From: Owenia fusiformis
Taxonomy: Eukaryota
Direction: 5' to 3'
NCBI GenBank assembly: GCA_903813345.2
Contig: CAIIXF020000001.1
Location: 7,254,001 to 7,318,000 of the forward strand
Length of the DNA: 64,000 nucleotides
Part shown: piece by piece, positions 1-28,400 of the stretch
How the letters are laid out: each line of letters starts with the position of its first letter
Numbering within the stretch: the first letter of the stretch is position 1
Position numbers and translations under genes: made by a program
The notes under the pieces: model-generated
What the model was told of the DNA's origin: nothing
Database searches by the model: none
The model's input: the letters and a program-made list of their open reading frames with translations, nothing else

Positions 1-145
1 ATTTCAATGTTCATGTAATACACACATGCATTTATTTTAATGTTCATGTAATACACATATGCGTTTATTTCAATGTCCATGTAATAAACACATGCATTTA
101 TTGCAATGTTCATGTTATACACACATGCATTTATTTCAATGTTCA
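1..145. repeat. 33-bp tandem repeat derived from the last ATP13A intron
   Basis: ATTTCAATGTTCATGTAATACACACATGCATTT x4 or more; single copy at ~10991-11025 in the intact gene. Confidence 0.9.
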
Positions 146-847
146 TTTACCATGGGTGTCATTTCAAACTTTGTAAATATGGCACCATTCGGTGAGCTCA
201 CATGATGAAAGACCTAGTAATCTCTCCAAAATGACTCAAAACTGTAATTGAAACCGCCATAAAAAGCAATGTGTTCTTGATCAGGTGATTGGCAGTTTTC
301 ATCTGAACAACTGGAATTGTTGCCAAGTGGATGGAGGACAGACATACAGAAAGATGAGCTAAAAAGTGTCAGTCACATATTAAACACTTAGTTACTCATT
401 CTCTAAAAACAAATTACTTTACTCACCTCAAGGAGGAAGCATATGAAGAAGTTTGCGACTGCAATTCCAGGATCAATCTGAAGGGTATAGAGGGTGGCGG
501 TTGCAGCTCCATGAAGTCTATTATGAATTGCAGGGGGTACACTGTCAACCAGACAGTCACAGCTGTTAGAACTATCAGATTTGCCAGGAACCAGTCTATG
601 TGGAAAAATAAATAAAAAAAGTCAATGCCTTAATTAATATACCTGTAAGCATATATACTATAGGGTGTTCAATAAGTATTGCTTAATTGTTCAAACTTTT
701 GTCCTGTTGGTTGGTTGGTTAACTTTTACATTGTTCTGTCAAAATTTTCAACATTATATTATTTTAGACAAAAGTTTGAGTCCAGCACCAAAGTATACAT
801 ATATGTTTATCTTATGAAATACTAGGGCATATGGTAGGTGATACATT

Positions 848-1036
848 CAGGCCCGTAGCCAGAGGGGGAGCTGGGGAAGCTTCCGCTCCCTCCCCCCCCC
901 TGGCCAGAAATTCTTTCAAAATCATACAGTTTTTCACCATTCTGGGAATTTTTCGCATGATTTTTAGCCAAAATTGTGAAAAAGCCCCCCCCCTGGGAAA
1001 AAGCTCCCCCTGCTGGTAAAAGCTGGCTACGGGCAA
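848..1036. mobile_element. Short GC-rich MITE near the large deletion junction of the duplicate
   Basis: CAGGCCCGTAGCCAG ... CTGGCTACGGGC termini; a related fragment lies at ~51160-51265. Confidence 0.65.
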
Positions 1037-2429
1037 GCATTGCTAGCTACAATGAAATGTGTGAAGTAATTTATCATTATCGATATAATAAATCTCTTGG
1101 TTAAATTGGAACACATCAATCTTGAATCTCATTGTAATTATAAACAAGGCATTAGTCTCTTGCTTCAGTCTGTTCTCCATGACCAGCAGGCCCAGAAATA
1201 TAAGATCATTTTCCATCTGCTCTCTACAAGGAAAACAAAAATATGTTTGCATGTCCATTATTTATCTCAAAAATATAATAAAACTTGATTGCATTATAGT
1301 ATCTCAATTAAAGTTCATTGTTGGTTAATGAGATCAGGAAAACGGAAAAGAGAATGGGTGTCCAAAAGGATGAATTTGGTTTTGAAAGGAATTGACAGAA
1401 CAGGAATAAGAAACTGTAACATTTTCAGTAGAACAGTCCATCGCATGCCTTACCTCTGAGCTCTTTGTACCTTGACCAGGGACATCTTGGGCAATGGTTT
1501 ATAAGCAACAGCTATCACCCTGTAGCCTTGCTGGGTGTATTGCATTAATACATCATGGAAGTCAACAGGAACTGAAAATACAAAATGTATGAACATTGAT
1601 ATTGGTAAAAAATTCTGCAGGTTTATAGATCTATCCTCATGCCTCCAAAGCTGCGTTATTCAAAGAAAATATACCAAGCGATGAATTCAAGAAGTTTTTG
1701 TTACGGAAGAACATGAATTTGCAATAAATCATCTCACCCTGTAATGCCGTCATCGAAGAACAGTTATCAACAAATTTTACATATACAATTTTGTAAGTAC
1801 ATTTTATTTGATTGGCAAACCTTTGTGTTATACTGTACTATATCTTTTGGGGCTAAAATGAGTCAACGAACAATGTTTTCTCAAAAATGTCACATACCTG
1901 TTTCCTGCCTGCATAATGAGGCCACCATCTCTGGGGCACCTTTTGTATAGAGATCAAAGTGTGTGGAGTCCAGTGTACGTGTGATCACTGACATGCGTTG
2001 TAGGCTAGATGAGAAAGTGAAGTGAAGCACTATGCCTATCTCATAAGGTATATTCTGAAATACAATTACATTGATTGGCAGAGATCTTTGAGGTATTTAA
2101 ACTTTATTTACTCTTTGTGTTTCATGTCATTTCAGTTGGTTACCTCTTAATTACAAAAAACTGTGTAGAACTGGATGTAAGCATGGTTAACAGCAACAGG
2201 AGTTTGTGTTACTTTTTCCAAAAGTCCCTTTGTTTAATAAATTCACCCATGTAAGAAATGAAAATTATTCCACATCATTAATTCTAGTAGAATGCAATAT
2301 AAGTGTTAGACTATTGTTCTAATAATGTTTAGAACATAAATAATTTAGAACATTTAACAGTTATAATGAAAAATGTTTTACGTACAATAGTGTGCTATAT
2401 AAACACAAAGCATCTGGGGTTTTACGATC

Positions 2430-3285
2430 ATGTATTTATGCTCATTATTATATCTTTTATTGACATTTTATATCAGTTACATGATACATTAGTCACTAAT
2501 CACTACAAACTACTTCTACAACTATTCTAACTATTCAAAAAATTATTATACAGTGTGATGCACACTACTAAACATATTAAATTTAATTCTGAAACCATGA
2601 TATATAAATTTTCCGATGTGTAATTGAACAGTCAAGTGTTCATTTGCCATTAAACTTTTAAAAATATATGGGTCATCACAATCAAAACTAGGAATAATTT
2701 CTTTTAATTTTGAGTACAAACATTCTCTTAGTATTTCATATTTGTTACATCTTACGAGAAAATATTCTTCATCTTCAATACAATTACATGTTGAACATTT
2801 TCTCTCATTAAGGGGTTTAGGGAAAGGTTTACAATGTCTACCCGTCTCAATATGTAACTGGTGTGAACTTAATCTAAATCTTGCAATACATTGCCTATAC
2901 TTTCTATTATCTAACCTTAAGTATGATTCACATTCAAATTTGGTTTTATATTTACAATACGTTCTGAGTATAGGTGCACACATAATAGCATTTTGCCAGT
3001 CGGCACGATACTGTCTCATCAAAGTGTTATTTACATTTTTTTTAAATATTTGTCCCAGAATTCTAACATGCCACATTTTTCAATTATTTTGAAAACTCTG
3101 GATGCCCATGAGGGAAACCCAAGATTGTGTAACTCAAGCTCATACTTATATGTTTCATATAATATGTTAGTTGGGCATAGTCTCAGGATTCTAATCCAAT
3201 ATTTTATCAATTGTGCTTCAAATTTTATATACAATGGATATAAAATACCTGATGTAAATATTGCTTCAAATAAAATATTCTTATC
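2430..3285 (-). mobile_element. 3' fragment of a CR1/L2-group non-LTR retrotransposon
   Basis: ORF 2546-3076 contains ARFRLSSHQLHIETGRH...ERKCSTCNCIEDEEYFLVRC, the C-terminal Cys/His region of L2/Crack/Daphne-type ORF2, continued by frameshifted ORF 3031-3234. It occupies the place of ATP13A exons 15-16 in the duplicate. Ends approximate. Confidence 0.8.
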
Positions 3286-3980
3286 TTAAGAAGTCTCTAC
3301 ATGAATAATTTAATGGGACAAAATTGATTACTTATGTTTAATCAAAAGTCAAAACAAGGCTTAAGATGCAAAATGTCACCACCTGCCATTTGTTACTGAT
3401 GCCAGTTGCCAAAACCGTCCTCAAAAAAGTTGAAAACCATAATGATATGTTAGCACTTGTGGTGGTGACATAAAAACATTGCAAAATGAGCATCTTGAAT
3501 GGTGAATGTCAAACTTACGTATTGTTGCTTTCTTGACCGTAAGTAGGTACAATTCCCCACATATCAAGGCCATCTTCAGTTAAAGTACCAGACTGAATAC
3601 AGAGACACACAGAAAAATTGTTTCAAACAGTTTTCTCCAAAGCTTAACAGAAATATTGTATTAAAACATCTATAACAAGATGACAGTAATACATTTTACA
3701 GTTTGAATATTACTTAATAAAATATTAATGCAATATTTATTTAATCGTTTGTAATTTCCTCTTTCAATAAATAATAAAGTAATGAAATGATTTTATCTTG
3801 TACAAATTATTGTTTTTCATATGTTTCAGCTGCAAAATGCAGCAAAAAAGTTAAAAAATAAAAGCTAGTAATTATTAAACAGGTACGTGTACTGTATGAT
3901 CTTTTTCAAAACATTTTGGGCAATATTACTATACAACAAAAGAATATTTTAAATTTCAAATTTCATCTCTTTAGTCTAAG

Positions 3981-4964
3981 ATGAAGAGCTGCACAATTTC
4001 ATCAATAATTTTAATGGTTGGACTGATGTTGGTGCCAATGGTATCGATTATGACATACCCAGTGGGTCGTAAGTAACACTAAAAGAATACACAAGTATCT
4101 GTATGATTTATGTGTGATATGTACATAGTACAATTACTATTGTTTATGTTAAAAAATAGGCTTGAAATCTGCTGGATGTGTATATAATAATAATACTGTT
4201 AAGTCATTTGCTGAATCTGGAAACTATTTAAATTCAAAATGTACATTTTTATTGCACATTACTTGTATATACAAACTTGCAAATGGTTACAAAAGTGTGA
4301 CAATTTGTTACGAAAGCAAATCACCACTGCTAAATGCTGGTCTCAAAAAACAAAGGGCAATAAGATACTAATGTTTCCTCTTCTTGGTTGTGGAAAAATT
4401 GGAAAGGCATTTCAATGAACAATATATATACTTCATAAAATTACAAAATACTTTTGAAAGGGGGCCTCAATCAATTTTTTCATTTTGATATTACATGCTA
4501 CTTACAATTACAGTACGTGTATAATGTCATGGGAGGCCATTTTCTTCCATTCATTAAGCTTCACAAACCCATGATTATAGATTAAAAAATTATAAAGTAC
4601 CTTAGAAATAAACTAATAACAAATATATTTGGAGGAGTGCAAAATAATGGCTGGCAGTGAGTAGTTAGAAAACCTAACTACATGTACATTCTAATTTATA
4701 AGAAATATTTTTAACACTGATACGGTTTTATTTAGACCGTGATAACACAACCTTATTTTAAAAGTAAACCTTTGATATAATAAATATTTGACTTCAAAAA
4801 CCCAAAATGGGTATACTATATATATTTTAGCTTGTGAGTCTAATCCCTGCCAGAATGGAGGTTCCTGTGTGCCTTATGATGATGGTACATTCTCATGTGT
4901 GTGCCTATCATCATACAAAGAAAAGCTGTGCCAGACTAAAACATCATTTGTAAACTGTTGCTAA
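3981..4964 (+). CDS. Nested secreted single-EGF-domain peptide, copy B (73 aa), inside the ATP13A duplicate
   Basis: Exon 3981-4068 encodes [29 protein letters not shown] with a phase-1 GTAAGT donor. Exon 4831-4964 encodes (P)[43 protein letters not shown]. Frame open, splice sites intact, all 8 exon-2 cysteines kept. The only indel versus copy A is 9 nt and in frame. Confidence 0.85.
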
Positions 4965-7900
4965 TAAATGGTGAACCAACAACAAATGACTTTCAGAAAC
5001 TTGCACATTTTCTATAAAAAATTTTAAATTGACAATAAATTTCTGAAAGAAGAGTAAACTTCATTTATGTTTTGTCAGACTAAATGCAAACATACCTTTA
5101 TCAAAATGAGAGAGAAATGGTAAAATGCTAAATCTCACCAGAAAGTCAAGATCAGGGAGGCTATTTCAAGAAAATATAAGGATTGCTAAACAGGTGTTTA
5201 TTTTGTAGGTAACTAAATAAAATTAATTGACTTACTTTATCAAAACATACAACATTTATTGAGCCAGTGACATTAATACTACTAGGACTGATACAGTAGA
5301 CCAAGCGGTCCTTTAGTCTGGACTGAGCAAATACGATGCCTATGGTCATGGCAGCTGGCAATGCAGGAGGAACGACAATTGTCACCAAGTCTAGGACACG
5401 CAGTACCACATGACCTGCACTATCTCCACGTTGAACCTGAAGATTAACAAATTAATACAAATATCAATTTTCACGCTCTTTTCATGTTTTCTTACATGAA
5501 ATAGTTACTATTACGGTAATTATTTCGAACTTGATGAGCATGTGTGAAATAAAAATAAGAAACAAATCATATATTTTGTAAACAAGTTCCTAGCAAAGAA
5601 TAATTTTACTTAAAAGTGGTATTCAGTGTAAACTCTCTTATTCTACTATTTTGCAGTTTTGGTTTAGCGTGATTTGTATGATTTATAGCTCTATGTGCTG
5701 TGGTGCTTTCTTTTCAAATGTTGGTGTACTGAAAAGTAAACCAGCTGCCAGAGCTAAATATTTATATCGATAGGGGCCTTAGTTAATGTAAACAACCCTT
5801 GACACAATTACCTGTTCTTATGACAACTGCCTTAACCTTCTCGCTGCCATAGTAACGTGTTTGAATGACCTTAGTGCCACAGAATAGAACATGTCTTGAA
5901 TGTTGCTTTATGTTAAACATCACTTCCTTAATGGTAGATAGCTGAGGGTTTGGCAATGGAGTCTTAGTGACTGGAACACTTTCCCCTATAAACAAATATT
6001 TTACATGAAAAGGAAACTAGAATGACAAATTAATAACTAATTAATAAATAAATATAAACTAGTGGGTAATAATGAAAAGTTTCCCCCATTTCTAAAGCGG
6101 CGATCTTGAAAAAAATTACTCACCAATATACAACTTTGCAAAAATATGAAGCAAATCCATCCACTAGTATTCAATTTATCTTATATTATATCTTATGGAC
6201 AGACAGACTGACTGACTGATGGACAATGGGCTTCACTATATCCCTACCAAACTTTGTTAGTATAATCAAGTGTAAGAGTTATCTTCCGTCAACTGAAAAT
6301 ACATTACCTGTCAACATGCTTTCATTGACAATACAGTTTCCTGTGATGAGAACGGCATCAACCTGCATGACACAGCCCTGGCATGGAATCTCGATGATAT
6401 CACCGGGGACCAATAAATCTGATGGAACATCTGCAAAGTCTGGAATAAGGAAAATATTGACACTATTATTTGGCCATAAACATACAGTGCCATGCAGGAA
6501 AAAGAAGGTCTGAGGTTAAATGAATTTAGTTTTGTGTGGAAAGTGGTGCAACAATACTATGCAACAACTATAGTAGTAAATCCAACAACAAGACAGTGTT
6601 ACAAAGATATTCACAAAATTGTTAAATGCAAACCATAAAATGTTTTTTTCAAGTACAAGTTATAATATCATAGATTTGGGCCTCTTTCAGAAATAAATAT
6701 TAATTCTCCAAATTGATTTACCATTCTTTCCCTGGCATACACCGACAATTTCTTCACTGTGGATGGTCTCCTTCAAAGCTCTCTGCATCTACAAATAATA
6801 ATAATAGCGTAGCTACTACTTTCACAGGTATCTTCACGACAAATGCATTTTTTTAATAACGTCTATATCTCTATCAACATACTTAACACAATAACGCATG
6901 AACTAATGCAACTTATATGTATGGAATAATACCCTCATATAAATATTATCAATACTGGTTACTATACGAATAAAATTGGCATATTTATTGGATAAATAGA
7001 GATTATTTACTGGGAGGAACAGAATATACAATGGTCAACAAAAGGTCAGGCTATGGAAGAAAAACATCATGGATATTGATATCTGCACGAGCCAGCAAGC
7101 CAAGTGCAGGTATCATACCAATTTATAGATAAAAATCATATCACTCAAAATTCATAGGATATACAGCACTCAATGTATCAATTTTGTAAATACAGTGTAC
7201 TGAACATTATAATGAAACATGTGTCCTTACCTCTGTTATTAGAAGTACAAGTTAAGTATAGGTTTAACATGTACACGGATAGAATTAAAACCATAGCTAA
7301 CTCTCCTGAAATATAAACAAACTGTAATAATGACTCCTTTACCTAAAATCATTTGTATAATATGATGTACATAGAGTGTCAAAAACAAGTAAACCAATTT
7401 TTCTATCCCTAAAAGGCTAAATGCTTATTTTTAAGCTATTTATTATAACTAGTAAGTAGTACGATGCTTTCTGACACCAACTTATTGAGACATAGACAAA
7501 TTCCATGTGTTATATAAAATTTAATAATATTCCACTATGACAATTAATTATAAAAGGATGCAACATTATTATATATTAGGGGTAGCAGTATTTACTTATT
7601 AGATCAATACTTTCAAAATGAGAAAGTACAATAGTCAACTTATTAAAGACTTGTACCTCCTGTCTTTATCTTTCTGTGATAAACCCTTTGCCTCATGGAA
7701 GTATGAACATGCATGGTTGCTCTCAAGGCCCCTAAAATGTAAACAACAAAAACGATGAAAGTGAGCGTACATTGAAAAATGTTCAAGAACTCAACAATTT
7801 CTTATTAGGAAAATATGGGAAACAACCTCTCAAAAATTAAAAATGCACTTTAGTCCCTGATCTGGACCCTCTGAAAAAAAGTTTTGTTGTCCAGTACTTT

Positions 7901-10444: not shown

Positions 10445-13400
10445 TCATAGTTGGGTAGCACTATGCCCTAGCTGTAAAAGTGGTACATTGTTATGTGTTG
10501 TTAAGTTGCTCATTTGATGTAATTGTTCATTTCTTATGGTTCTGTCAATAGGGACTGGGTATGTATCCACTAAATCTGTGGGTTCCTGACTGCTAAGCAA
10601 TGGTACCACATTCCCCTCAACAGGATGATCGGGAAGTATTGCATTGGGGTTTGATGAGCCACTATTGGGCGAGACAAGACTAGCTGTCCCACTGTAACCA
10701 CTATCTGGTTCTGGAGATTTAGGACTTATCAGCTGTGTGCTATCACTGAGAGGTGTCAATACAGTAGTGGGGCTAATGTCATCTACATCCACTACTCCAG
10801 GGGAACTTTCAATACGGAGGAGGTCCACAATTGACTGAGAGGATTTAACAGGTGGCCACTGTGGAAGCTCTGCAATTTCTTCCTCTACTGCCTCATAATG
10901 GTAGCGATCATCACGGTTCATGCAACGTTGTAATGCATTCTGGCATTTCTGCCTGATGAGATTAGTGTCTATGAGGAAAGTCTGCAAGTACATGTAATAC
11001 ACACATGCATTTATTTCAATGTTCATTTACCATGGGTGTCACTTCAAACTTTATAAATATGGCAACATTCAGTGAGCTCACATGATGATAGACCTAATCT
11101 CTCCAAAATGACTTAAAACTGTGACAAACAATGGTGTAAATTACTTGCACAAGGCCCCATAATGTGTTCTTGATCAGGTGATTGGCAGTTTCCATCTGAA
11201 CAACTGGAATTGTTGCCAAGTGGATGGGAGGACAGACATACAGAAAGATGAGCTAAAAAGTGTCAGTCACATATTAAACACTTAGTTACTCATTCTGTAA
11301 AAACAAATTACTTTACTCACCTCAAGAAGGAAGCATATGAAGAAGTTTGCAACTGCAATTCCTAGCAGGATCAATCTGAAGGGTATAGAGGGTGGCGGTT
11401 GCAGCTCCATGAAGTCTATTATGAATTGCAGGGGGTACACTGTCAACCAGACAGTCACAGCTGTTAGAACTATCAGATTTGCCAGGAACCAGTCTTTGAG
11501 GAAAAATAAATAAAAAAAAAGTCAATGGCATAATTAATATACCCATAAGCATATATACTATAGGGTGTTCAATAAGTATTGCTTAATTGTTAAAACTTTT
11601 GTCCTGTTGGTTGGTTAACATTTACATTGTTCTGTCCAAATTTTCAACATTATATTATTTAGATAAAGTTTGAGTACAGCACCAAAGTCAACATGTATTT
11701 ATATCTTATGAAATACTATTTGTTGGACGTTTAACTCTGAGCGCTGAACACTATCCTCATATATAAATATATCGAAGTAGGAATGTTAACATCCCAATTA
11801 CTGGCTCAACAAAATGAGGCACGGGAAAATACTACTGAAATTTACTTACAATTTGAGAAAATGCTTTTCCTATAAGGAGAACCCTTGGAGTATATGATAG
11901 CTAGAGTAATGTACTGGAAGGCAGAGACAATAAAGACAGCATTCTCCTCATCACTGGCGTATTCGTCGTCTTCATTGGGAACAAATGGCTCAAACCTGTA
12001 GGAAAATTGCCAAGTGTCATTATTAAGGTTTTTATATTGGAATGGAATAAAGAATCAGTTACATGTTTTTAATATTATTCTATACATACAGAGGAAACAG
12101 TAGAAACCTCACTAAATAGAAACAAGGTATATACAGCCAGATGTGAACCAGTAGAGGTTGACTGTCAAGGGTCTACAGGATAATCCCTCTGGAGAACATT
12201 AGGATTATTAGGAATAAATGGCAATACAAGGAAGCAGGCGATTGGAAGCATTACAAGAACAGCAAGGAAAGCATCAAAATAGCTCTGGATCAAAAGAGCA
12301 GAGAACTGGAACACAAAATACATGTAGACACCAACTAGAAGTATTTAGCTTGAGAAGCACACACTTGTCCCACACCACTTTGTAGGGGTCACCTGGTAGA
12401 GATATACAATGTTGAAAGACCCGAAATAACAATGAAACCTGAGGCACATTGCTGATGATGGGACAAGCACATAGAGTAACACCAAAGTATGTTTATCAAA
12501 GTACATGATTAAATTGTCACCTTCTCCATAGTCTCTGGACATTGCCAAATGACCACTGCTTATGGAAATTCTTAAAAAATCCTCTACATTTCATTGATAA
12601 AACGTCCCTCCAAATATTCCCAGAACTTAAAGAGGATTTTCATCATTTGAAGAAAGGTTCTCCCCTGCCAATGTAATCTTACATAAAATATTGTGCTGCA
12701 TAATTACTAATTTTAAAGTTTTTTAATATTGCGTAAATTAAAAGGGCATCAAATTAATATTTTGAATTTCCTTTTACTTCTCACAACATTTCAAAAAAAT
12801 TGGAGGAATAATTGTATGTTATAGCAGTTTGCACCTACCATGGTTGTTCCTTAACATAGAACCATGTCCCAACTTGCACAGCAAGCATAGCAGACATCTG
12901 TATGAAGAGAGACATAATAGGAGCAGTACTGATCAGACTCACAGGAGGACGCTCTCGTACAAGTTTAGGGTATGCTCCTGTTCGACCATCTATAAAATGC
13001 AAAATTAGTTAATAGAAAACACAGTGAAATCATGTGCTTTATTTAAGGGCTGTTACTAGAATCCATGCTAAATATTTTAAAATTGAGCTATGAAAGTGAC
13101 TGACTCCTCCACATATAGTCATACAATTATCACTGAACATGGAAACCTTTTGAAGATAAGGGTCAAATCAACCTACCAGATATTTTAACTATATAATATG
13201 GATGGATATGAGTACAACGAGGTTAATTTACATGAAAATGAAATGTAAAGGAAAAATTATGCTCACATGTAATACTGAGTGTCGTCAACAAGGCTAGGTC
13301 AATGTAGAGGAACTGGAAGTCTGTCAGGTTAGCACCAATCCAGTAGAGTAGAAGAACTGATATGAACTGACACAGAGAATATGTGGCCATGTATTTAAAG

Positions 13401-16400
13401 ATGCCAAAAGATGTCACTAGCGCAGCTCGCCCTTCCCTGAAACACAATGAGCCAAACTTTGCTATTTGCTTGAACTGGTTTCAAATTAAAAGAGTAATTC
13501 AGTATAGTACAATATCTCCGTTCAACAAAAGGAGACATCAAAAGGAGATATCAAAATCCTAAAATAATGAATACATGCATTGGAAGAATTAATTGTATTT
13601 ACAAGATGTATGAAGGTGATCTTACTTGATGACAGCAGGTATACATGTTATGTTAGGTTCCTTAGAGGTGAATGGGGAAGCAACAGAAGCCTCTGCTTCA
13701 GACAGTGACACGCCTGCATGTGCTGTCTTCAAGGCCCCACAATCATTGGCCCCATCCCCACACATCCCTACATAGTACCTGCAATACAATAAAATGTGTA
13801 TGTCAGTGACACGCCTGCATGTGCTGTCTTCAAGGCCCCACAATCATTGGCTCCATCCGCACACATCCCTATTCCCTACATAGTACCTGCAATACAATAC
13901 AATGTGTATATCAGTGACACGCCTGCATGTGCTGTCTTCATCCCCATTTCTCAACCAATCAGAATGTAGCATAGATGATTCTCCATACATGAACGACAGT
14001 GCATTATGCACATCCGGGAATCTGAATTATATTGTGACGTCACATCTGGGGGAAACGGCCACTGTCAAAATTTATATGAGAGAATGACAAGTTAACCAAT
14101 GTTTTCTTTATTTTTTATGTTTGAATCCTTAAATAAAATGACTTACCCAACCTCCTGCAGGGCTTCTACAAGTTGTGATTTCTGTTCTGGTGACATCCTC
14201 GCAAAAACAGTGCCCCGCACAACCAACTTCGGGATTATGTCAGGGTAGTACTGCCGGATCAAGCCCCAGGACTTGCCGGTGATAGCAAAATGGAAGTGTT
14301 CATTCCCCTCTTCTATCTCAAGAGAGTAGGTCTCCTGCAAATTGAAGCATTCATCAAAATCAATGCGATAATTCAAGTTTTGACATTCATGCCCATTTTT
14401 AAAATCAGGTTTTTAGCCAACCATTCTTCTGAATTTCCAATGTTTGTTAAAATGCTTGGTGAAATAATGTACTTTAGGTCATCTCAATTATGAAAGAGCC
14501 TAAAATGATTAAAATACATGTAGTTTTAATACATTAATGCTTCTACAAATAAAATATTCAGGAAGTGCAAATCAACAAATCTGTTCAACATGCAAGTGCA
14601 CGAGCAGGTTGTTCATAAACAAATGTTATCTGGCTTACCATTTGCTTTGTGTGGATCTCTTCCACTTTGGACTTGGTATCCTCAGCATACGTCCATTCTA
14701 TCTGAGCATTTTGTTTCCCAATAGGTGGCACGACAGTTACAAGGATCACTTTATCGTTGGGATCGATCATTTCACAATCTCTTGCTACACTCAGGGCAGT
14801 TAGCATATTGTCACCTGTGAATGGAAATAGATTGTATGCATTAAATAACATGTAAAGTTTAATTAAATATAACTTTTTGATTGGTATTTCATAGTCTACT
14901 TTTCTTAGGTCTAGTAACCTATTTTCTCGAAGTGCATTACGCCGTGTGACCAAATAACACCACAGAAATCACAGATTATATTTAGATACCATAATATGAC
15001 ATAAGAGGTGTGGAATACCTGTAACCATAATAGTTCTGAGATCAGCATCTCGTAGTTGTCTAATGACAGGGCTTGTCTCTTGCTTCAGTCTGTTCTCCAT
15101 GACCAGCAGGCCCAGAAATATAAGATCATTTTCCATCTGCTCTCTACAAGGAGAACAAAAATATGTTTGCATGTCCATTATCTATCTCAACCAGAACAAC
15201 GGCAACTCCAAAGCGTAGCGAATCCCATCGAACAGAAATGGCTGGCATTTTACAAACAAAATATATAGCAAATATCGTAAAATAACACACATAAGAAAGG
15301 CCACCATTTTCAAAATGGTTGCTCACTAGCCAAGTTGTCATCAGAAGAAGAAATATGCTTTTAAGTAGCGACATATAAATTTTTTTAAAAATCACCCACG
15401 TATACATGTAAATGCTGACGATTTTTTAAAATGGCCGCCTACTACCCAAAATGTCATAAGACAGTATGCAATCCTTACGAGTATTCACATATCAAATATA
15501 AACAAAATCGCTCTATTACTTTTTGAATTATAATAAAAAATGTAAAACAAGAACACAAATGTGTACAATATGTCCCCACCAAGTGGTGATCCCGTGAAAT
15601 GGTTATCCTGAAAATGAGTAGACAAGACTTTACCAACACAATTTGAGGACGGAAAATCCAAAGTGGCCACCTTAAAATTTACCCAGAATGCCAAAAATTT
15701 AGTCAGTTCTAGATTTTCATACTAAGAACCACCCCTGAAAATTTGAAATTGATCCGTCACACAGTTAACCAGAAAACATGTAAACAAGACTTTACAGACA
15801 AGATTTCAGGATGGAAAATCCAAAATGGCTGCCTTGACATTTACCCAGAATGTCAAAAAACTAATCTGTTTGTAGATTTTCATACTAAGAATCATCCCTG
15901 AAAATATGAAATTGATCTACCAAACGGTTCACCCGAAAACGGGTAGACAAGACTTTACAGACAAGATTTTAGGACAGAAAATCCAAAATGGCTGCCTTAA
16001 CATTTACACAGAATGCAAAAAAACTAATCAGATGTAGATTTTCATATGAAGAATCATCCCTGAAAATTTGAAATTGATCTATCAAACCGTTCACCTAAGA
16101 ACGCGTAGACAAGACTTTACAGGCAAGATTTTAAGACGGAAAATCCAAAATGGCTGCCTTGACATTTACCCAGAATGCAAAAAAACTAATCAGTTCTAGA
16201 TTTTCATACTAAGAATCATTCCTGAAAATTTGAAATTGATCTACCATACAGTTCACCTGAAAACGAGTAGACAAGACTTTACAGACAAGATTTTAGGACG
16301 GAAAATCCAAAATGGCTGCCTTGACATTTACCCAGAATGCCAAAAAACTAATGAGATCTAGATTTTTATACTAAGAATCATCCCTGAAAATTTGAAATTG

Positions 16401-19400
16401 ATCCACCAAATGGTTCACCTGAAAACGCGCAGACAAGACTTCACAGACAAGATTTTAGGACGGAAAATCCAAAATGGCTGCCTTGGCATTTACCCAGAAT
16501 GCCAAAAAACTAATGAGATCTAGATTTTTATACTAAGAATCATCCCTGAAAATTTGAAATTGATCCACCAAACGGTTCACCTGAAAACGCGCAGACAAGA
16601 CTTCACAGACAAGATTTTAGGACCGAAAAATCCAAAATGGCCGACAATAAAAAAGTCCTTATGAGTTTTTGCTGATTTCTTTTTACAAAATTATCACATA
16701 TAACTACTGTTAACAATAAAGTAGGCTTTTACAACAAAGTGCATCTGAAATTATTTATAAAGCTACTAAATAGTTAAAGTATGAAAACTCAAAAACACCA
16801 TTCAATATGATACAAAGTATTATCGCGCGCTAACTTTTCTTAGGACATTCAAAATGGCTGACACGACTGAGCTAGCAGGTCCAAAACCTAATCAGATCTA
16901 GAATGAAGTGAGCTGAACAAGATGTTAAAGTTTTAAAAGCAACTGTGAAGCAGTTTTTCTTAAAGTTTGCAGACAAGGATTTTAGCATTTGACTTCAAAA
17001 TGGCCGACAGGAAGTAGGTTTCGAGTTAAATTTTTTTCATCCACATCTATAGGCACTCATAAGTTATCCCTGAAAATTTGAAGGTGATATCTGTAGCGGT
17101 TTTGGAGAAAACTCCCGGACGTACGGACGGACAGACAGACGGACGGACAGACGGACGCGCCTAGGCCGACAATATGGCCCCACACTATGTGGTGGGGACA
17201 TAATAACACACATAAAAATGGTGGCCATTTTTCAAAATGGCCCACTACTCCCCAAAGTTTTATTAGTCAATGTGCCATGCTAAAAGTATTCACATATCAA
17301 ATATGAACAAAATCACTCCAATACTTTTGGAGTTATAGCAAAAAATGTAAAAATGATGGCCATTTTTTAAAATCGCCACCTTCTACGCGAAGTGTCATGA
17401 GACAGTGTGCAAGGTTCATAAGTATTCACATATCAAGTCTGAACAAAATCGCTCCACTACTTTTCAAGTTATAGTAAAAAACGTAAAAAATGATGGCCAT
17501 TTTTCAAAATGGACGCCTACTACCCAAAGTGTCATTAGACAGTGTGCCATGCTTATAGTATTCACATATAAAATATGAACAAAATCGCTCTACTACTTTT
17601 TGAGTTATAGTCACGCCCGGTGATCATGAAAATGGGACGGAGGGGGGGAGCAGGCAATTTCCGCTAGAAAATTCAACAAATCTGGTAAAATTATTTTTTC
17701 AAGACAGAGTTTACGATTGAATTGCAAATTGAATAAGCGCACGGTATGATAAAATATGTTAGGTATTCTAGGATTATTTTTCAACCGATACTCTTTTAAG
17801 ATATAAGATCTATTAAAAAAGGCGCAACGCAACCAACGTGCAAAAGTCAAAGTTTTTGCTATAAATCAAGCAACAATGGACTACACGACCTGTAATAAAT
17901 ACTTGTAAGTGATGTTATCATAACTAAATTAATGTCATTGCTGAATTTATAAAATAAGTTTCCATACGTAAAATAAAAAATAATCGAAAATAATTAAAAT
18001 GGGACGGAGGGGGGAGGGGACGGAGGGGGGAGTAATAATTCTATAAAGTGAAACATCTTCACACGAATTCTTGTATTTGAAAAATGAACTCATTAACTTA
18101 GTAAGAAACTGGATGATATACCCCTGGAGACTGAAAAATGGGGACATTTGGAGTAAAAGGACTTAAAGTCGCAAAACATCTCTAATCATGTCTTATATAC
18201 ATATTGCTCCCCCCCTCCCCCCCTCCGTCCCAAATTCATTATTTTCGATTATTTTTTATTTCACATATGGAAACTTATTTTATAAATTCAGCAATGACAT
18301 TAATTTAGTTATGATAACATCACTTACAAGTATTTATTACAGGTCTTCCAGACCATTGTTGCTTGATTTATAGCAAAAACGTTGATTTGTGCCTGTTGAT
18401 GGCCTTGCGCCTTTTTTAATAGATCTCATACCTTAGATGCGTATCGTTTCAGAAAAAATCCCAGAAAACCTAACATATTCTACCATACCGTGCGCCTGTC
18501 CATTTAGCAATTCAATAGTAAACTTTTTCTTGAAAAAATAAATCTCCCAGATTTGTTGAATTTCCTAGCAGAAATTGCCTGCTCCCCCCTCCGTCCCATA
18601 TTCACGATCACCAGGCGTGATAGTAAAGAATGTAAAATAACACACGTAAAAATGATGGCCATTTTGAAAAATGGCCGCCTACTACCCAAAATGTCATTAG
18701 ACATTCGCCCATGCTTAAAGTATTCACATACCAAATATGAACAAAATCGCTCAACTACTTTTTGACTTACAGTAAAAATGTTAAATAACACACGTAAAAA
18801 TGGCGGCCATTTTGAAAAATGGCCGCCTACTCCCAAAAATGTCATTAGACATTGTGTCATGCTTAAAGTATTCACATACCAAATATGAACAAAATCGCTC
18901 CACTATTTTTCAAGTTACAGCAAAAATCGTAAAAAGACGTGCAAAGGCAGCCATTTTTCAAGATGGCTGCCATATATTTCTTCTGTATTTACATTTCTAG
19001 CTTAATCAATGTTCTACTTTTTTACATTTAAAACATAATGCTATTACAGTTTTATATGCAGTACCTAAATAACTGTAAAATCGGCACTAAAATGGCCACC
19101 ATTTTTAAATGAGCGGCCATTTTGAAAATCCGTTTTCGAGCAGAACTTCTACCCCCATTGGGTATATGTGTAAAAAATATGAACAAAATCAAGCCAACGG
19201 TATTTGAGTTATTGCCCGGACGGACGGACGGACGTACGTACGGACGGACAGAGGCGTTCCCTATATCCCTTCCGAACTTCGTTCGATGGGATAAAAATAG
19301 AGTGTAATAAAACTTGATTGCATTATAGATCTCAATTAAAGTTCATTGTTGGCTAATGAGATTAGGAAAACTGATAAGAGAATGGGTGTCCAAAAGGATG

Positions 19401-22400
19401 AATTTGTTTTTAAAAGCCCACTGCATGCTTTACCTCTGAGCTCTTTGTACCTTGACCAGGGACATCTTGGGCAATGGTTTATAAGCAACAGCTATCACCC
19501 TGTAGCCTTGCTGGGTGTATTGCATTAATACATCATGGAAGTCAACAGGAACTGAAAATATAAAATGTATGAACATTGATATTTGTAAAAAATTCTGCAG
19601 GTTTACAGGTCTACTACCCTCATGCTTCCAAAGCTGCGTTATTCAAAGAAAATATACCATGTGATGAATTCAATAAGTCTTTGTTGCAGAAAAAAATGAA
19701 TTTGCTATAAATCATCCCACCCTGTAATGCATTCATCCAAGAACAGAAATCAACAAATTTTACATATACAATTTTGTAAGTACATTAAATTTCATTGGCA
19801 AACCTTTGTAGTATAATACTGTTACATATCTTTTGGGGCTAAAATGAGTCCATGAACAAAGCGTTTTCTCAAAAATGTCACATACCTGTTTCCTGCCTGC
19901 ATAATGAGGCCACCATCTCTGGGGCACCTTTTGTATAGAGATCAAAGTGTGTGGAGCCCAACGTACGCGTGATCACTGACATGCGTTGTAGGCTAGATGA
20001 GAAAGTGAACTGACGCACTATGCCAATCTCATAAGGTATATTCTGAAATACAATTACATTGATTGGCAAAGATCTTTGAGGTACTTCAACTTTATTTCTT
20101 CTTTGTGTTTCATGTCATTTCAGTTGGTTACCTTTTAATTACAAAAAAACTGTTTAGAACTGGATGTAAGCATGGTTAACATGATTTATAGGAGTTTGTG
20201 TTATTATTTCCAAAAGTTTCCCTTTATGCTTTCTCATTGCCAATGGTATTTCTAACATGGATCAAAAAGGATAATGCCTTTTTTTCAATAATTTTACTCA
20301 TGTAGGAAATGAAAATTATTCCAGGTCATTAATTCTAGTAGAATTCAATTCAAGTGTTAGACTAATGTTCTAATAATGTTTTAGAAAATGTTTTATGTAC
20401 AATAGTGTACTGGTGCTATGTTAAGTCCACCCGCTATGGCTCAGTGGCAGAGTCAAGGTTACCAATATCGCTTGGCCCGGGTTCGATTCCCGGTTAAGAC
20501 AAGTTTATTTGTGTGTTATGTAATTCTGGGTGTTTGACTGAGTGGTTCACAACTCGTATAGAAGGCTGTGGTGTGTACCTGTATGTCTGTGTACCTGTGC
20601 ACACAAAAGAACACAGGGCTCCTCCAAGGAGGGGTTTCTGGCTCTATCTTCGAGTGTAAAATACGTAAAATACGGAATATACCAATGAGGTATTGCTCGC
20701 CAAATATGGCGGTAACCAAGATATAATAATAATAATAACCACTGGTATATTCACTTCCTATGTAATGAACCACCACAACTACTTACATCTGGTGAGTCAA
20801 AGCTGGCAGATATTCTCTTGTTGTCAGATGTTTTAGGACGTACGACAGTGGGACTGAAAACATCAAACTTTGAAGCATCCTCACCAGGCTCCTCTAAATC
20901 CTAAAATATATTATTTAAGGGAAATCATAAGACACAGCCAAATTAACTACCCATATAAAAATAATATTTTTGAAATCATATTTTCAGTCAATTTTATGCC
21001 TTTTTATATATCCTACTTAAAATGTTTTTGATTGCATTTTTGATGTGACCTTTTTCATATAATCTAGTGAGCCATGCTTTTTTGAGAACATCATATTCCT
21101 GAACTTATCCTTACCCACTTTGTTGATTCGAACATTTTCAAATCCAAGGGGTCTCCACTTATAACACCCTCTATTATAGTGAGAGAATGGCACGTTGCCA
21201 TAGCAGCAGATAAAGGCCCCTTAGGCAAAAGAGAGGGATCATGCTCTGGAGCTTGGAATCTGAAATACAATATATTCATTTCATCATAAGAAAACAGGTG
21301 GTATTTCATAGCAATCATTGATTAATGAAAACCTCACATTCTATAAACATATTAATCTGAGTAGATGAATTCGAAAACATTGATTATATGCACTGTCTTT
21401 AAGAAGTCTCTACATGAATAATTTAATGGGATTACGTATGTTTAATCCAAGGTCAAAACAAGACATTAACATGCAAAATGTCACCACCTGCCATTTGTTA
21501 CAGATGCCAGTTGCCAACACCGTCCACAAAGACGTTGGAGACCATAACGATATGTTACCACTTGTGGTGGTGACATACCACTTGTGGTGGTGACATACCA
21601 CTTGTGGTGGCGACATAAAAACATTGCAAAATGAGCATCTTGAATGGTGAGTGTTCACATCAGCATGTAGAGTTTGATAATACTCTTCAACATACTCCAT
21701 TGTAATATGTGCATGGTCAAACTTACGTATTGTTGCTTTCTTGACCATAAGTAGGTACAACTCCCCACATATCAAGGCCATCCTCAGTTAAAGTACCAGT
21801 CTGAATACAGAAAAATACAGAATAATTGTTTACCTAAACAGGGATATCATATAAACAAGTACTGTATATGTCTTTAATTACATGGTGTGTTTAATTATGC
21901 GTATTTCGCGCTAGACAATTATCACTGAAATATAAATATGAATATTAAAACCTCTCCATAAAAATCGAGGAATGACCAAGTTTAACAAAACAAAAGTAAT
22001 ACATTTTACAGTTTGAATAAACCTAATAAATCATTAATACAGTATTTTATTGTTTGCAATTTCCTTTTTCAATAAATGATGAAGTAATGAAACGATTTTA
22101 TCTTAAATAATCATTGTTTTTCATGTTTCAACTACTGAAAAAGACAGCAAAAAAAATTCAAATATAAATCTGGTAATAATTGAACAGGTACGTCTGCTAC
22201 ATGATCATTTTAAACCATTTTAGGAACTTTTATTCTATAACAGAACATCATACAAATTCTAATTTTAAACTTCATCTTTTAAGTCTAAGATGAACAGCTG
22301 CACAATTTCATCAATAATTTTAATGGTTGGACTGATGTTTGTGTTTGAAATGCCAATGGTAACAATGATTCCATGCCCAGTGGACCGTAAGTAACATTAT

Positions 22401-25400
22401 AAAAGGACATCTATATGATTTTTGTGTGATATATACATAGTACTATTGTTCATGTTCCAAAAATTAGCCTTGGAATCTGCTGGATTTGTATATAATATTA
22501 CTGTTAATTCATTTGCTGGATACTATTTAAATTCCAAATGTACAGTTTTATTGCACATTACACACCACTTGCAAATTGTTACAAAAACTGTAACAATTTG
22601 TTAGAAAAGCCAACCACCACTGCTGAATGCTGGTCTCAAAAAATGAAGGGCAATAAGATATCAACATCTCCTCTTGGAATTGGAAAGGCATTTCAATGAA
22701 CAACAAGGCATTAACATGACAAAATGTCACCACCTAAAACAATTTGGTCAATTTAAAGCAAGTTGGAAAATACCTTTTGACCTTAAGAAGAACTTCTGAG
22801 AACATGTAGATGATTTTGAAAAAAAATTAGTCAATTTGAAGCAAGTTGAAAAAAGACCTTTTTGACCTTGAGAAGGTCATTGAAGGTCAAAGGTCAAATC
22901 TAAAGTCAGATTTGAACTTCTGAGAACTTGTAAAGTCAAATTTGAACTTCTGAAAAGATGTAGATGATTTTGAAAAAAAAATTTGGTCAATTTGAAGCAA
23001 GTTGAAAACAGACCTTTTTGACCTTTTTTGACCTTGAGAAGGTCATTAAAGGTCAAACGTCAAATTAAAAGTCAGATTTGAATTTCTGAGAACATGTAGA
23101 TGATTTTGAAAAAAAAAATTAGTCAATTTGAAGCAAGTTGAAAAAAGACCTTTTTGACCTTTTTTGACCTTGAGAAGGTCAAATGTCAAATCTAAAGTCA
23201 AATCTAAATTTGAATTTCTGAGAACATGTAGATGATTTTGAAAAAAAATTTAGTCAATTTGAAGCAAGATGAAAAAATACCTTTTTGACATTTTTTGACA
23301 TTGAGAAGGTCATTGAAGGTCAAATGTCAAATCTAAAGTCAGATTTGAATTTCTGAGAACATGTAGATGATTTTGAAAAAAAAATTTAGTCAATTTGAAG
23401 CAAGTTGAAAAAAGACCTTTTTGACCTTTTTTGACTTTTGAGAAGGTCAAATGTCAAATCTTAAGTCAAATCTAAAGTCAGATTTGAATTTCTGAGAACA
23501 TGTAGATGATTTTGAAAAAAAATTTAGTCAATTTGAAGCAAGTTGAAAAAAGACCTTTTTGACCTTTTTTGACTTTGAGAAGGTCATTGAAGGTCAAATG
23601 TCAAATCTTAAGTCAAATCTAAAGTCAGATTTGAATTTCTGAGAACACGTAGATGATTTTGAAAATTTTTTTTAGTCAATTTGAAGCAAGTAGAAAACAG
23701 ACCTTTTTGACCTTTTTTGACCTTGAGAAGGTCAGATTTGAAGGTCAAATGTCAAATCTTAAGTCAGATTTGAATTTCTGAGAACACGTAGATGATTTTG
23801 AAAAAAAATTTAGTCAATTTGAAGCAAGTTGAAAACAGACCTTTTTGACCTTTTTTGACCTTGAGAAGGTCATTGAAGGTCAAATGTCAAATCTAAAGTC
23901 AGATTTGAAGGTCAAATGTCAAATCTAAAGTCAGATTTGAATTTCTGAGAACATGTAGATGATTTTGAAAAAAAATTTAGTCAATGTGAAGCAAGTTGAA
24001 AAAAGACCTTTTTGACCTTGAGAAGGTCAGATTTGAAGGTCAAATGTCAAATCTAAAGTCAGATTTGAATTTCTGAGAACATGTAGATGATTTTGAAAAA
24101 AATTTAGTCAATGTGAAGCAAGTTGAAAAAAGACCTTTTTGACCTTGAGAAGGTCATTGAAGGTCAAATGTCAAATCTAAAGTCAGATTTGAACTTCTGA
24201 GAAGATCTAGATGATTTAGAAAAAAATTGAAGTCAGTCTAAACAGTATTTGTTAAGTTATAGGAAGTTGTAAGAAATTGTTACAGACGCCGGACGCCGGA
24301 CGCCAACCACCAACCGCCGTCGCAAAAAAACGGAGACCATAACAATATGTCACCACTTTTTGGTGGTGACATAATATATACTTCACAAAATTACGAAATA
24401 CTTTTGAAAGTTGGCTTCTATCGTTTTTTTTATTTGGTATTGCATACTACATACAATTACATGTACATGTATAGTGTGAGGTTAGATGAGTTTATTCCAT
24501 TCATAAGCTTCACAAACCCATGATTATAAATTACAATTTGATTTGAGGTTAGATGAGTTTATAAAGATGAGTTTGTAAATAACAATATAATTTGAGGTAA
24601 GATGAGTTTATAAATGACAATATGATTTGAGGTTAGATGAGTTTATAAATGACAATATGATTTGAGGTTAGATGAATTTTATAAATAACAATATGATATG
24701 AGGTTAGATGAGTTTATAAATGACAAAAAAAAACATGATTATAAATTGCAATTTAATTTGGTTTTAGATGAGTTTATAAAGATAAGTTTGTAAATAACAA
24801 TATGATTTGAGGTTAGATGAGTTTATAAATAACAATATGATTTGAGGTTAGAAGAGTTTATAAATGACAATATGATTAGAGGTTAGATGAGTTTATAAAT
24901 GACAATATGATTTGAGGTTAGATAAGTTTATAAATAACAATATGATTTGAGGTTAGATGAGATTATAAATGACAATATGATTTGAGGTTAGATGAATTTA
25001 TAAATGATAATATGATTTGAGGTTAGATGAGTTTATAAATGACAATATGACTTGAAGTTTATAAATGACAATATGATTTGAGGTTAGATGGATTTATAAA
25101 TGACAATATGATTTGAGGTTAGATGAGTTTATAAGTGACAATATGATTTGAGGTTAGATGAGTTTATAAATGACAATATGATTTGAGGTTAGATGAGATT
25201 ATAAATGACAATATGATTTGAGGTTAGATGAGTTTATAAATGACACTATGATTTGAGGTTAGATGAGTTTATAAATGACAATATGATTTGAGGTTAGATG
25301 AGTTTATAAATGACAAATACCGAAGAAATATCAAGGGCAAGTGTTTATAGAAGATATATAACATAAAACATACAAGAACACAAATGTGTACAAAATGTCC

Positions 25401-28400
25401 CCACCTATGGGTGATCCTGTCAAATGGTTATCCTAAAAACGAGTAGACAAGACTTTACCGACACAATTTGACGACGGAAAATCCAAAATGGCCACCTTAA
25501 AATTTACCCAGAATGCCCAAAAATAAGTCAGTTCTAGATTTTCATACTAAGAACCACCCCTGAAAATTTGAAATTGATCTGTCACACAGTTAACCAGAAA
25601 ACATGTAAACAAGACTTTACAGACAAGATTTGAGGACAGAAAATCCAAAATGGCTGCCTTGACATTTATCCAGAATGCCAAAAAACTAATCTGTTCTAGA
25701 TTTTCATACTAAGAATCATCCCTGAAAATTTGAAATTGATCTACCAAACGGTTCACCTGGAAATGCGTAGACAAGACTTTACAAACAAGATTTAAGGACA
25801 GAAAATTGAAAATGGCTGCCTTGACATTTACCCAGAATGCCCAAAAACTAATCAGATCTAGATTTTCATACTAAGAATCATCCCTGAAAATTTGAAATTG
25901 ATCTACCAAACGGTTCACCTAAAAACACGTAGACAAGACTTTACGGGCAAGATTTTAAGACGGAAAATCCAAAATGGCTGCCTTGACATTTACCCAGAAT
26001 GCCAAAAAAACTAATCTGTTCTAGATTTTCATACTGAGAATCATCCCTGAAAATTTCAAATTGATCTACCAAACGGTTCACCTTGAAATGTGTAGACAAG
26101 ACTTTACAGACAAGATTTTAGGACGGAAAATCCAAAATGGCTGCCTTGACATTTACCCAGAATGCCCAAAATCTAATCAGATCTAGATTTTCATACTGAG
26201 AATCATCCCTGAAAATTTGAAATTGATCTACCAAACGGTTCACCTGAAAATGCGTAGACAAGACATTACAGACAAGATTTTAGGACGGAAAATCCAAAAT
26301 GGCTGCCTTGACATTTACCCAGAATGCCCAAAAACTAATCAGATCTAGATTTTCATACTAAGAATCATCCCTGAAAATTTGAAATTGATCTACCAAACGG
26401 TTGACCTGAAAACCCGTAGACAAGACTTTACAGACAAGACTTTACAGACAAGATTTTAGGATGGAAAAATCCAAAATGGCCGACAATAAAAAAGTGGTTA
26501 TAAGTTTTTGCTGATTTCTTTTTACAAAATTATCACATATAACTACTGTTAACAATAACATAGGCTTTTACAACAAAGTCCACCTGAAATTATTTATAAA
26601 GCTACTAAATAGTTTAAGTATGAAAACTGAAAAACACCATTCAATATGATACAAAGTATTATCGTGCGCTAACTTTTCTTAAAACATTCAAAATGGCTGA
26701 CATGACTGAGCTAACAGGTCCAAAACCTAATCAGATCTAGAATGAAGTGAGCTGAACAAGATGTTAAAGTTTTAAAAGCAACTGTGAAGCCGTTTTTCTT
26801 AAAGTTTGCAGACAAGGATTTTAGCATTTGACTTCAAAATGGCCGACAGGAAGTAGGTATCGAGTTGATTTTTTTTCATCCACATCTGCATGCACTCATA
26901 AGTTATCCCTGAAAATTTGAAGGTGATATCTGTAGCGGTTTTGGAGAAAACTGCAGGACGTACGGACAGACGGACAGACAGACAGACGGACGCGCCTAGG
27001 CCGACGCCTAGGCCGACAATATGGCCCCACACTATGTGGTGGGCACATAAAAAGAGCAACTAACAAATATATTTGGAGGAGGGCAAAATAATGGTTGCCA
27101 GTGAGTAGTAAGAAAACATAACTAACATTCTGATAAACAAGAAATATTTTTTGAACACTGATATACAGGTTAAGTCAGACTGTGACTGTAACACAACTTT
27201 GTTATAATAAATATTTGACCTCAAATTCAAATGGGTATACTGTGCTTATATATTTTAGCTTGTGAGCCTAATCCCTGCCAGAATGGTGGTTCCTGTGTGT
27301 CTTATGATGATGCTACATTCAAATGTTATTGCCTATCCCCATTCGGAGGAAAGCAGTGCCAGACTAAAAAATTAGTTGCAACATGTTGCTAATAAATAAT
27401 GAACCAACAAATGACTTTAAATCGACAATAAATTCTGAAAGGAGTGTAAACTTCATTTATATTTTGTCAGTCTAAATTTCCAAACATACATTTATCAAAA
27501 TGAGAAATGATAAAATGGTAAATCTTTCATCGGAAAATCAAGACAGGGGAGGTTACGGGAAACCAGGTAGGCACTGCTAATAGGTATTAATTTTGTAGGT
27601 ATCTAAGTAAAATATATTGACTTACTTTATCAAAACATACAACATTTATTGAGCCAGTGACGTTAATACTACTAGGACTGATACAGTAGACCAAGCGGTC
27701 CTTTAGTCTGGACTGAGCAAATACGATGCCTATGGTCATGGCAGCTGGTAATGCAGGAGGAACAACAATTGTCACCAAGTCTAGGACACGCAGTACCACA
27801 TGACCTGCACTATCTCCACGTTGAACCTGAAGATTAACATATATATATAAATATCAGTTTTCAAGCACTTTTCTCATGTTTTCTCATTTCAAGAAATATT
27901 TATTTTTATTTTAATGAGCACAAGCGAAATGAAAATCCTATCCTTTATGAACATGTTCAGAGCAAATAAAACTTTACAAAAATTCTACAATATTTTCCTT
28001 GTTAGTATTTAGGCATAGCTATCATACCATAATTATGAGAGTATAAAGCATTCCAATGGCAGATATGAGGGCTAGGACACCTATAAACTTGTAACTGTCC
28101 TGTGTGAACTTGAAATCAACTGGCTTTGGGTACATTATTGAGCGGACTAATTCACCCTTTGAAGTCATGAAACCTGAAAGTTTTGAAAACCTTGAATCAC
28201 ACAATGAGTATAAGCATAAATGTGATACTGCGTCAAATAAATTTCATTATTTTTAATGAAGCTAAACCTTTACTCTAAAAATGTTACTCAATTATTCAGT
28301 GTAAACTCTCTTATTCTACTATTTTGCAGTTTTGGTTTAGCATGATTTGTATGATTTATAGCTCTTTGTGCTGTGATTCTTTCTTTTCAAATGTTGGTGT

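Follow-up and report, generated by a model that had tools for sequence, protein, structure and literature searches.

Gene structure and position within an ATPase intron

In order to characterize a small gene for a peptide with a single epidermal growth factor (EGF) domain, we analysed 64,000 nucleotides (nt) of the genome of the annelid Owenia fusiformis (assembly GCA_903813345.2, contig CAIIXF020000001.1, positions 7,254,001 to 7,318,000 of the forward strand; this whole stretch is referred to as the window, and all positions are given in its coordinates). The EGF gene, on the plus strand, is enclosed by an intron of a minus-strand gene for a P5B ATPase. The host gene was recognized by the minus-strand open reading frame (ORF) 27590–27853, which in the PDB matched P5B ATPases, among them polyamine-transporting ATPase 13A2 (E ∼6e-18), and which contains an exon ending in CFDK, i.e. 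in the DK of the DKTGT motif, with GTAAGT following on the minus strand. Over the region 27130–28260 we examined three raw RNA sequencing (RNA-seq) runs (X12–X14), of each of which ∼6–12 % was read, and one run of contigs of putative RNA origin (X1). The two ATPase exons of this region (the CFDK exon and 28026–28176) were covered to a depth of 2–11, with the joint between them present in nine reads of X14, and all RNA reads were first-mate-on-plus, as stranded libraries should give for a gene on the minus strand; a single X14 read at 27130–27243 had the same orientation as those from the ATPase. Run X1 was rejected as RNA, being colinear with the genome through the introns at a flat, DNA-like depth of 12. 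For the reads that stop at 27626, the 30-letter consensus of the loose ends was identical to window positions 21771–21800 (three reads in X12, nine in X14), and the ATPase intron therefore extends from 21801 to 27625 and splits the motif as DK|TGT. All exons of the EGF gene, which spans 22122 to ∼27455, fall within this intron. As such, the antisense nesting that an initial annotation of this DNA had proposed was borne out both by exon mapping and by spliced RNA reads.

The features of the locus are collected in Table 1. The initial annotation had also described two plus-strand exons, 22290–22386 and 27259–27392, joined in phase 1 through GTAAGT and TTTTAG sites; the sequence agrees with this structure, and the same junction is found in an independent public gene model. 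The codon split by the junction (C+CT) specifies Pro. Additionally, the 5′ untranslated region (UTR) is itself split by an intron of 96 nt, so that the gene has three exons in all. The predicted precursor of 76 aa, with its hydrophobic leader, single EGF domain and Cys-Cys end, was likewise upheld, by translation and by comparison with Pfam, in which the E3 peptide scored 34.6 bits against the EGF family PF00008 (E 2.3e-08, gathering cut-off 21.5), covering profile positions 1–31 of 32. Cysteines stand at residues 4, 29, 34, 39, 45, 55, 57, 66, 75 and 76. The leader peptide encoded by E2 matched no Pfam family. In the frame of E3 the plus-strand ORF extends over 27219–27392, and when all six frames of the window were scanned for the spacing of the six EGF cysteines, two matches were returned, both on the plus strand (27261–27359 and 4833–4931); the segment 27259–27392 is thus not a chance ORF.

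Table 1. Features of the EGF-peptide gene (copy B), its sister (copy A) and the surrounding ATPase exons
Feature	Position	Strand	Remarks
Host ATPase exon ending in CFDK	27626–27824	−	ATP13A2 structure match; RNA depth 2–11; joint 27824>28026; loose read ends at 27626
Host ATPase, next exon	21726–21800	−	Starts at 21800; lower bound is the ORF end, donor unmapped
Copy B exon E1	22122–22187	+	5′UTR; donor GTACGT from 22188, kept in copy A; placed by tblastn of NCBI protein model P0002
Copy B exon E2	22284–22386	+	6 nt UTR, ATG 22290, 32 codons plus 1 base (hydrophobic leader); acceptor TTTAAG; donor GTAAGT at 22387
Copy B phase-1 intron, 4872 nt	22387–27258	+	Mainly tandem arrays (22790–24228, 24565–25316, 25421–26449); ends in TTTTAG
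Copy B exon E3, coding part	27259–27392	+	One EGF domain (six Cys), 10-residue tail ending in Cys-Cys; TAA stop 27390–27392
Copy B probable 3′UTR	27393–27455	+	AATAAA at 27391–27396 (overlapping the stop) and 27427–27432, both kept in copy A; 3′ end approximate
Copy A exon E2	3975–4068	+	ATG 3981; GTAAGT donor as in copy B; 9-nt in-frame deletion relative to copy B
Copy A EGF exon	4831–4964	+	TTTTAG acceptor, phase, stop position and terminal Cys-Cys as in copy B; 28/43 residues identical
DK exon of second, partial ATPase copy	5236–5434	−	Hosts copy A; 196/199 nt identical to 27626–27824, no indels

The public model in question is an NCBI protein of 100 aa (P0002), entered as 'unnamed protein product, partial' from O. 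fusiformis, which is 100 % identical to the peptide and carries the 22386/27259 junction. The expectation that the gene was probably unannotated was therefore mistaken. By tblastn, 22 of the 24 additional N-terminal residues of P0002, which include no Met, map to E1 and the other two to the 6 nt ahead of the ATG; the protein is thus labelled partial because UTR was translated. Both introns of the model have GT..AG ends on the plus strand. According to the report on the Owenia genome, its annotation was RNA-seq-based, merging StringTie, Trinity and Portcullis evidence with Mikado, Augustus and PASA, and 31,678 of 31,903 filtered transcripts had RNA-seq support (PMC9977687). In view of this pipeline and of the form of the model, whose UTR is spliced and whose coding sequence is open to its first base, P0002 looks transcript-derived.

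A sister copy in a duplicated segment

The second match of the pattern scan belongs to a sister gene, hereafter copy A, as opposed to copy B described above. Alignment of the window with itself by blastn showed that 102–7851 is colinear with 10983–33457, with large gaps between the aligned blocks. Copy A occupies the equivalent intron of a second copy of the ATPase, in which the exon after the DK exon starts at 3592. This ATPase copy is without several exons, including one that in the complete gene encodes a stretch of 11 residues, and it is therefore a partial duplicate, placed in tandem just downstream of the last exon (10448–11026) of the complete gene. Copy A specifies a product of 73 aa with its stop at 4962–4964, and its intron is only 762 nt long, compared with an intron in copy B of which tandem arrays make up ∼3.2 kb.

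A number of further observations were made on the duplicated segment and its introns. The surviving exons of the duplicate ATPase are much better kept than its introns (196/199 nt for the DK exon versus ∼83 % identity for non-coding flanks), pointing to selection or gene conversion in the past. In the duplicate, the first Thr of DKTGT is replaced by Ser (DK|SGT; 3590–3592 on the minus strand, corresponding to 21798–21800); to our knowledge, this phosphorylation motif is invariant in P-type ATPases. Two variants in the RNA reads, G>A at 27662 (three of ten reads in X14) and T>C at 27749 (three of four in X13 and three of 11 in X14), correspond to the bases of the duplicate at 5272 and 5359, and either the duplicate DK exon is transcribed or the two positions are shared polymorphisms; the third difference between the copies, at 27764, was not among the RNA variants, and the copies do not differ at 27793, where the reads have a further variant. 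As to repeats, one 162-nt satellite unit is arrayed in two ATPase introns (15713–16664 and 25421–26449), where its repeated 53-aa stop-free reading is a repeat artefact. A dispersed repeat of ∼250–370 nt occurs in several ATPase introns (17057–17306, 19052–19342, 26799–27174 and 30367–30662), its copies having similar translations rich in Arg, Pro, Ser and Val, and one of them lies just upstream of the EGF exon. The ORFs 2549–3079 (minus strand) and 31852–32163 (plus strand) resemble the C-terminal part of ORF2 proteins of non-long terminal repeat retrotransposons, and one of the two was inserted in the duplicate copy only.

Leader, coding constraint and expression

Our reading of the locus, to which we assign a probability of roughly 0.65, is that of a real, publicly modelled three-exon gene on the plus strand, nested in the intron of an ATP13A2-like P5B ATPase and encoding a 76-aa EGF precursor of secreted type. 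That there is a real gene here we consider quite probable. For the leader, Kyte–Doolittle analysis gave a 9-residue maximum of 3.0 at residue 9, and 19-residue windows exceeded 1.6 at starts 1–13 only. There is consequently a single, N-terminal hydrophobic segment, and the statement in the initial annotation that no transmembrane segment follows the leader was correct. This profile makes it likely that the EGF peptide is targeted to the endoplasmic reticulum (ER). A glycosylphosphatidylinositol anchor or C-terminal membrane segment was considered and rejected, as the tail past the sixth EGF Cys comprises 10 non-hydrophobic residues. Both copies end in Cys-Cys, with eight residues between the sixth EGF Cys and this pair, and Cys29, between leader and domain in copy B, is Tyr in copy A. 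The odd number of cysteines in the mature peptide, which had been put forward as a feature of the product, is therefore specific to one copy, with only the six EGF cysteines and the Cys-Cys pair being shared. An AlphaFold2 model of the 43-aa EGF domain and tail, built on an alignment of two rows, was too poor to use (mean predicted local distance difference test score, pLDDT, 54.9; predicted template modelling score 0.30).

Several results weigh against the reading given above, and the first of them concerns cleavage of the leader. Under a strict −3/−1 rule no cleavage site exists between residues 15 and 32 of copy B. This would suit a type II signal-anchored membrane protein, with the hydrophobic segment left uncleaved and the EGF domain exposed at the cell surface or within a lumen of the secretory pathway. 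The very short n-region points in the same direction, as does copy A, in which residues 3–31 form a run of 29 residues free of charged or amide residues, enough for a membrane span. The hydrophobic segment of copy B likewise begins at residue 3; however, its uncharged run ends at Glu20 after 17 residues (3–19), which is the size of a signal peptide. Furthermore, the strict rule does give one site in copy A, after Thr25, and if Met is allowed at −3, cleavage would, as judged by eye, be possible after Thr25 in copy B and after Ser22 in copy A. On balance, we regard a membrane-anchored product as unlikely.

The remaining adverse results bear on whether the peptide is made and under selection at all. 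When the two copies were compared, 189 of 222 coding nt were identical (85.1 %, with one in-frame indel of 9 nt), and 917 of 1109 nt in the non-coding flanks (82.7 %, with 28 indel events). Coding substitutions are thus about as frequent as those in the flanks, and the Nei–Gojobori method yielded five synonymous and 27 non-synonymous differences, corresponding to a ratio of non-synonymous to synonymous rates (dN/dS) of 1.56, a value that is based on few differences and on its own would also fit neutral decay. Judged on substitutions alone, the EGF peptide looks unconstrained or positively selected. In addition, exon E3 had no reads in any of the three RNA runs (zero depth over 27244–27623 in the ∼6–12 % of each run that was read), and no dataset containing 27259–27470 was recorded as RNA. 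In the samples covered there is thus no broad expression of the EGF exon; its expression could be stage- or tissue-specific. Homologs were sought with the EGF exon by a word-based search of 5.8 billion proteins, in which hits must share exact words, so that only close relatives are within reach. Such searches (at 31–100 aa and at 55–175 aa) returned P0002 alone, distant relatives lying beyond their range, and the same searches found no model of the sister copy (3981–4964) in the collection, making it possible that copy A is the unannotated one. Searches of the ESM Atlas gave generic EGF clusters only, with scores of ≤ 0.88 that serve as leads (the model in the Atlas itself has a pLDDT of 0.61), and a search of the literature on Owenia for EGF, secreted or tube proteins found nothing specific.

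The substitution, RNA-read and homolog results are what might be expected if the ORF were non-functional, i.e. if a relic EGF exon and a chance leader had been copied passively together with the ATPase segment, perhaps with noise-level transcription that was then caught by annotation. Nevertheless, over a divergence of ∼15 % both copies have kept the reading frame, the ATG, the position of the stop and both splice sites, along with all eight cysteines of the EGF domain and tail, and this speaks against decay. In a neutral simulation of 200,000 trials with 33 random substitutions each, 29.8 % of trials were free of premature stops and 3.5 % retained all eight cysteines, whilst only 0.49 % satisfied both and also kept the ATG and stop (P=0.0049). 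The indel rate of the flanks predicts 5.8 events in 231 nt, with a probability of 0.010 that the frame would be kept, and the joint neutral probability is therefore roughly 0.005 × 0.01. Both tests are fair because copy A had no part in the original choice of copy B. The leader is nearly invariant, with two differences (both non-synonymous) in the first 18 aligned codons versus 30 in the other 55, and the public model, with two canonical introns on the plus strand of which one lies in the 5′UTR, also speaks against a relic. A non-functional ORF is as such decidedly improbable, and we conclude from the comparison of the copies that both have been maintained as coding genes, in which the scaffold is fixed whilst the loops are free to vary or are diversifying.

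Domain type and biological meaning

The EGF domain has the spacing C-x4-C-x5-C-x9-C-x-C-x8-C around a core of NPC-QNGG-S-C. In Pfam it did not match EGF_CA, the families reached at E ≤ 1 being EGF, EGF_2 and DUF7949 only. When we searched the PDB sequences with phmmer, EGF repeats of Notch1 ranked first (best single stretch 29.3 bits), followed by EDIL3, PVFP-5, DLK1, Delta-like 1 and the first EGF domain of factors VII and IX; mouse EGF reached an E-value of only 0.0055, in an alignment that began at residue 5. The motif of EGF receptor (EGFR) ligands, as given in PMC7460564, is CX7CX4-5CX10-13CXCX8GXRC. Neither copy conforms to it, as both have four residues instead of seven between C1 and C2 and nine instead of 10–13 between C3 and C4, and in place of GXRC they read G-K-Q-C (copy B) and E-K-L-C (copy A). 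Consensus sequences for O-glycosylation were taken from PMC9672378. That for O-fucose, C2XXXX(S/T)C3, is present in both copies as C-QNGG-S-C, a predicted site, whereas that for O-glucose, C1XSX(P/A)C2, is found in copy A (C-E-S-N-P-C) and is absent from copy B, in which the corresponding C-E-P-N-P-C has no Ser; the O-GlcNAc consensus described there occurs in neither. By these sequence features the domain belongs to the Notch/factor VII type and falls outside the EGFR-ligand type.

The Notch, Delta and factor VII-type repeats (hEGF) are thus the nearest counterparts, resembling the Owenia domain in Cys spacing, in the NPC-QNGG-S-C core, in the phmmer matches and in the O-fucose site. Such repeats, however, sit in large multi-domain proteins, mostly membrane-bound or modular plasma proteins, whereas the domain described here stands alone behind a leader and ends in a Cys-Cys tail. 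PVFP-5, the foot protein 5 of the green mussel, is likewise a small, secreted, lophotrochozoan EGF-repeat protein, and was matched at E 4e-11 in two stretches over its 83-aa chain. It is a DOPA-rich (3,4-dihydroxyphenylalanine-rich), adhesive protein, with two or more EGF modules, whereas the Owenia peptide has no evident adhesive composition, and the match reflects the common EGF scaffold only.

With regard to architecture, the initial annotation had compared the product to the snail factor L-EGF and to the gigantoxins. The gigantoxin I-like peptides of sea anemones and Glycera are likewise made as small precursors that combine a signal peptide with one six-Cys EGF domain, and PMC4202326 describes two EGF-only peptides with a signal peptide, 88–89 aa in length, from venom-gland transcripts of the annelid Glycera. 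They differ in that a propeptide is present and that their domain resembles EGFR ligands and has EGF activity; the Owenia peptide is without an evident propeptide or dibasic site between the leader and C1, and its terminal Cys-Cys is extra. L-EGF and gigantoxin I are both described as invertebrate members of the EGF family (PMC10985097). L-EGF of Lymnaea stagnalis is also a secreted factor that has one EGF domain and lacks a membrane anchor. L-EGF belongs with the EGF growth factors, whilst the Owenia domain is nearer to Notch-type repeats than to EGF, a separation made at the level of the family. Given the failure of the EGFR-ligand motif and the phmmer ranking, the comparison thus holds for architecture and not for domain type. 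Accordingly, an EGFR-ligand-type factor or gigantoxin-like toxin that binds the EGF receptor is highly improbable, even with the shared plan of leader plus one unanchored EGF domain, the annelid precedent in Glycera and a rapid change between the cysteines that would suit a toxin, since the motif departs on three counts and the Notch-type proteins rank far above mouse EGF. Owenia is also not known to be venomous.

The product is hence most likely, as judged from its sequence, a small, ER-targeted and probably secreted Notch-type single-EGF peptide that evolves rapidly on a fixed scaffold. The N-terminal hydrophobic segment would take the chain into the ER, where the EGF domain would fold with three disulfides and the Ser of the C2-x4-S-C3 site might receive O-fucose; a peptide of ∼50 aa would then be released, and its conserved C-terminal Cys-Cys may form a vicinal disulfide or intermolecular links. 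The gene and its co-duplicated sister form a small, probably lineage-restricted family, in which leader, Cys scaffold and frame are held whilst the residues between the cysteines change at or above the neutral rate. Secreted peptides with partners outside the organism's own cells, as in defence, predation, adhesion or immunity, usually show this pattern, which in a conserved growth-factor ligand is unusual. A more speculative extension, which we consider unlikely, is that this family is young, confined to oweniids and larger than the two genes visible here, which were born and duplicated as passengers inside an ATPase intron. Its members, secreted peptides with one Notch-type EGF domain, might function in defence or in a toxin-like manner, as components of tube or mucus that cross-link covalently, or as soluble decoys of interactions between EGF repeats. 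Their role as external effectors would then be marked by loops that are hypervariable on a conserved Cys scaffold, together with conservation of the leader and of the vicinal Cys-Cys at the C-terminus.

As the gene model is already public, copy B can no longer be regarded as a hidden gene; nor do these findings bear on a long-standing open question. Single-EGF peptides are of a kind already known. The locus provides a case of a nested gene that was duplicated together with its host intron, and of which only the scaffold of leader, cysteines and frame is held whilst the surface residues change. If the peptide is made, it would be a sensible target of peptide discovery in an annelid that is not a model organism, and would bring a Notch-type addition to the small set of secreted invertebrate single-EGF peptides, the known members of which are of the EGFR-ligand type.

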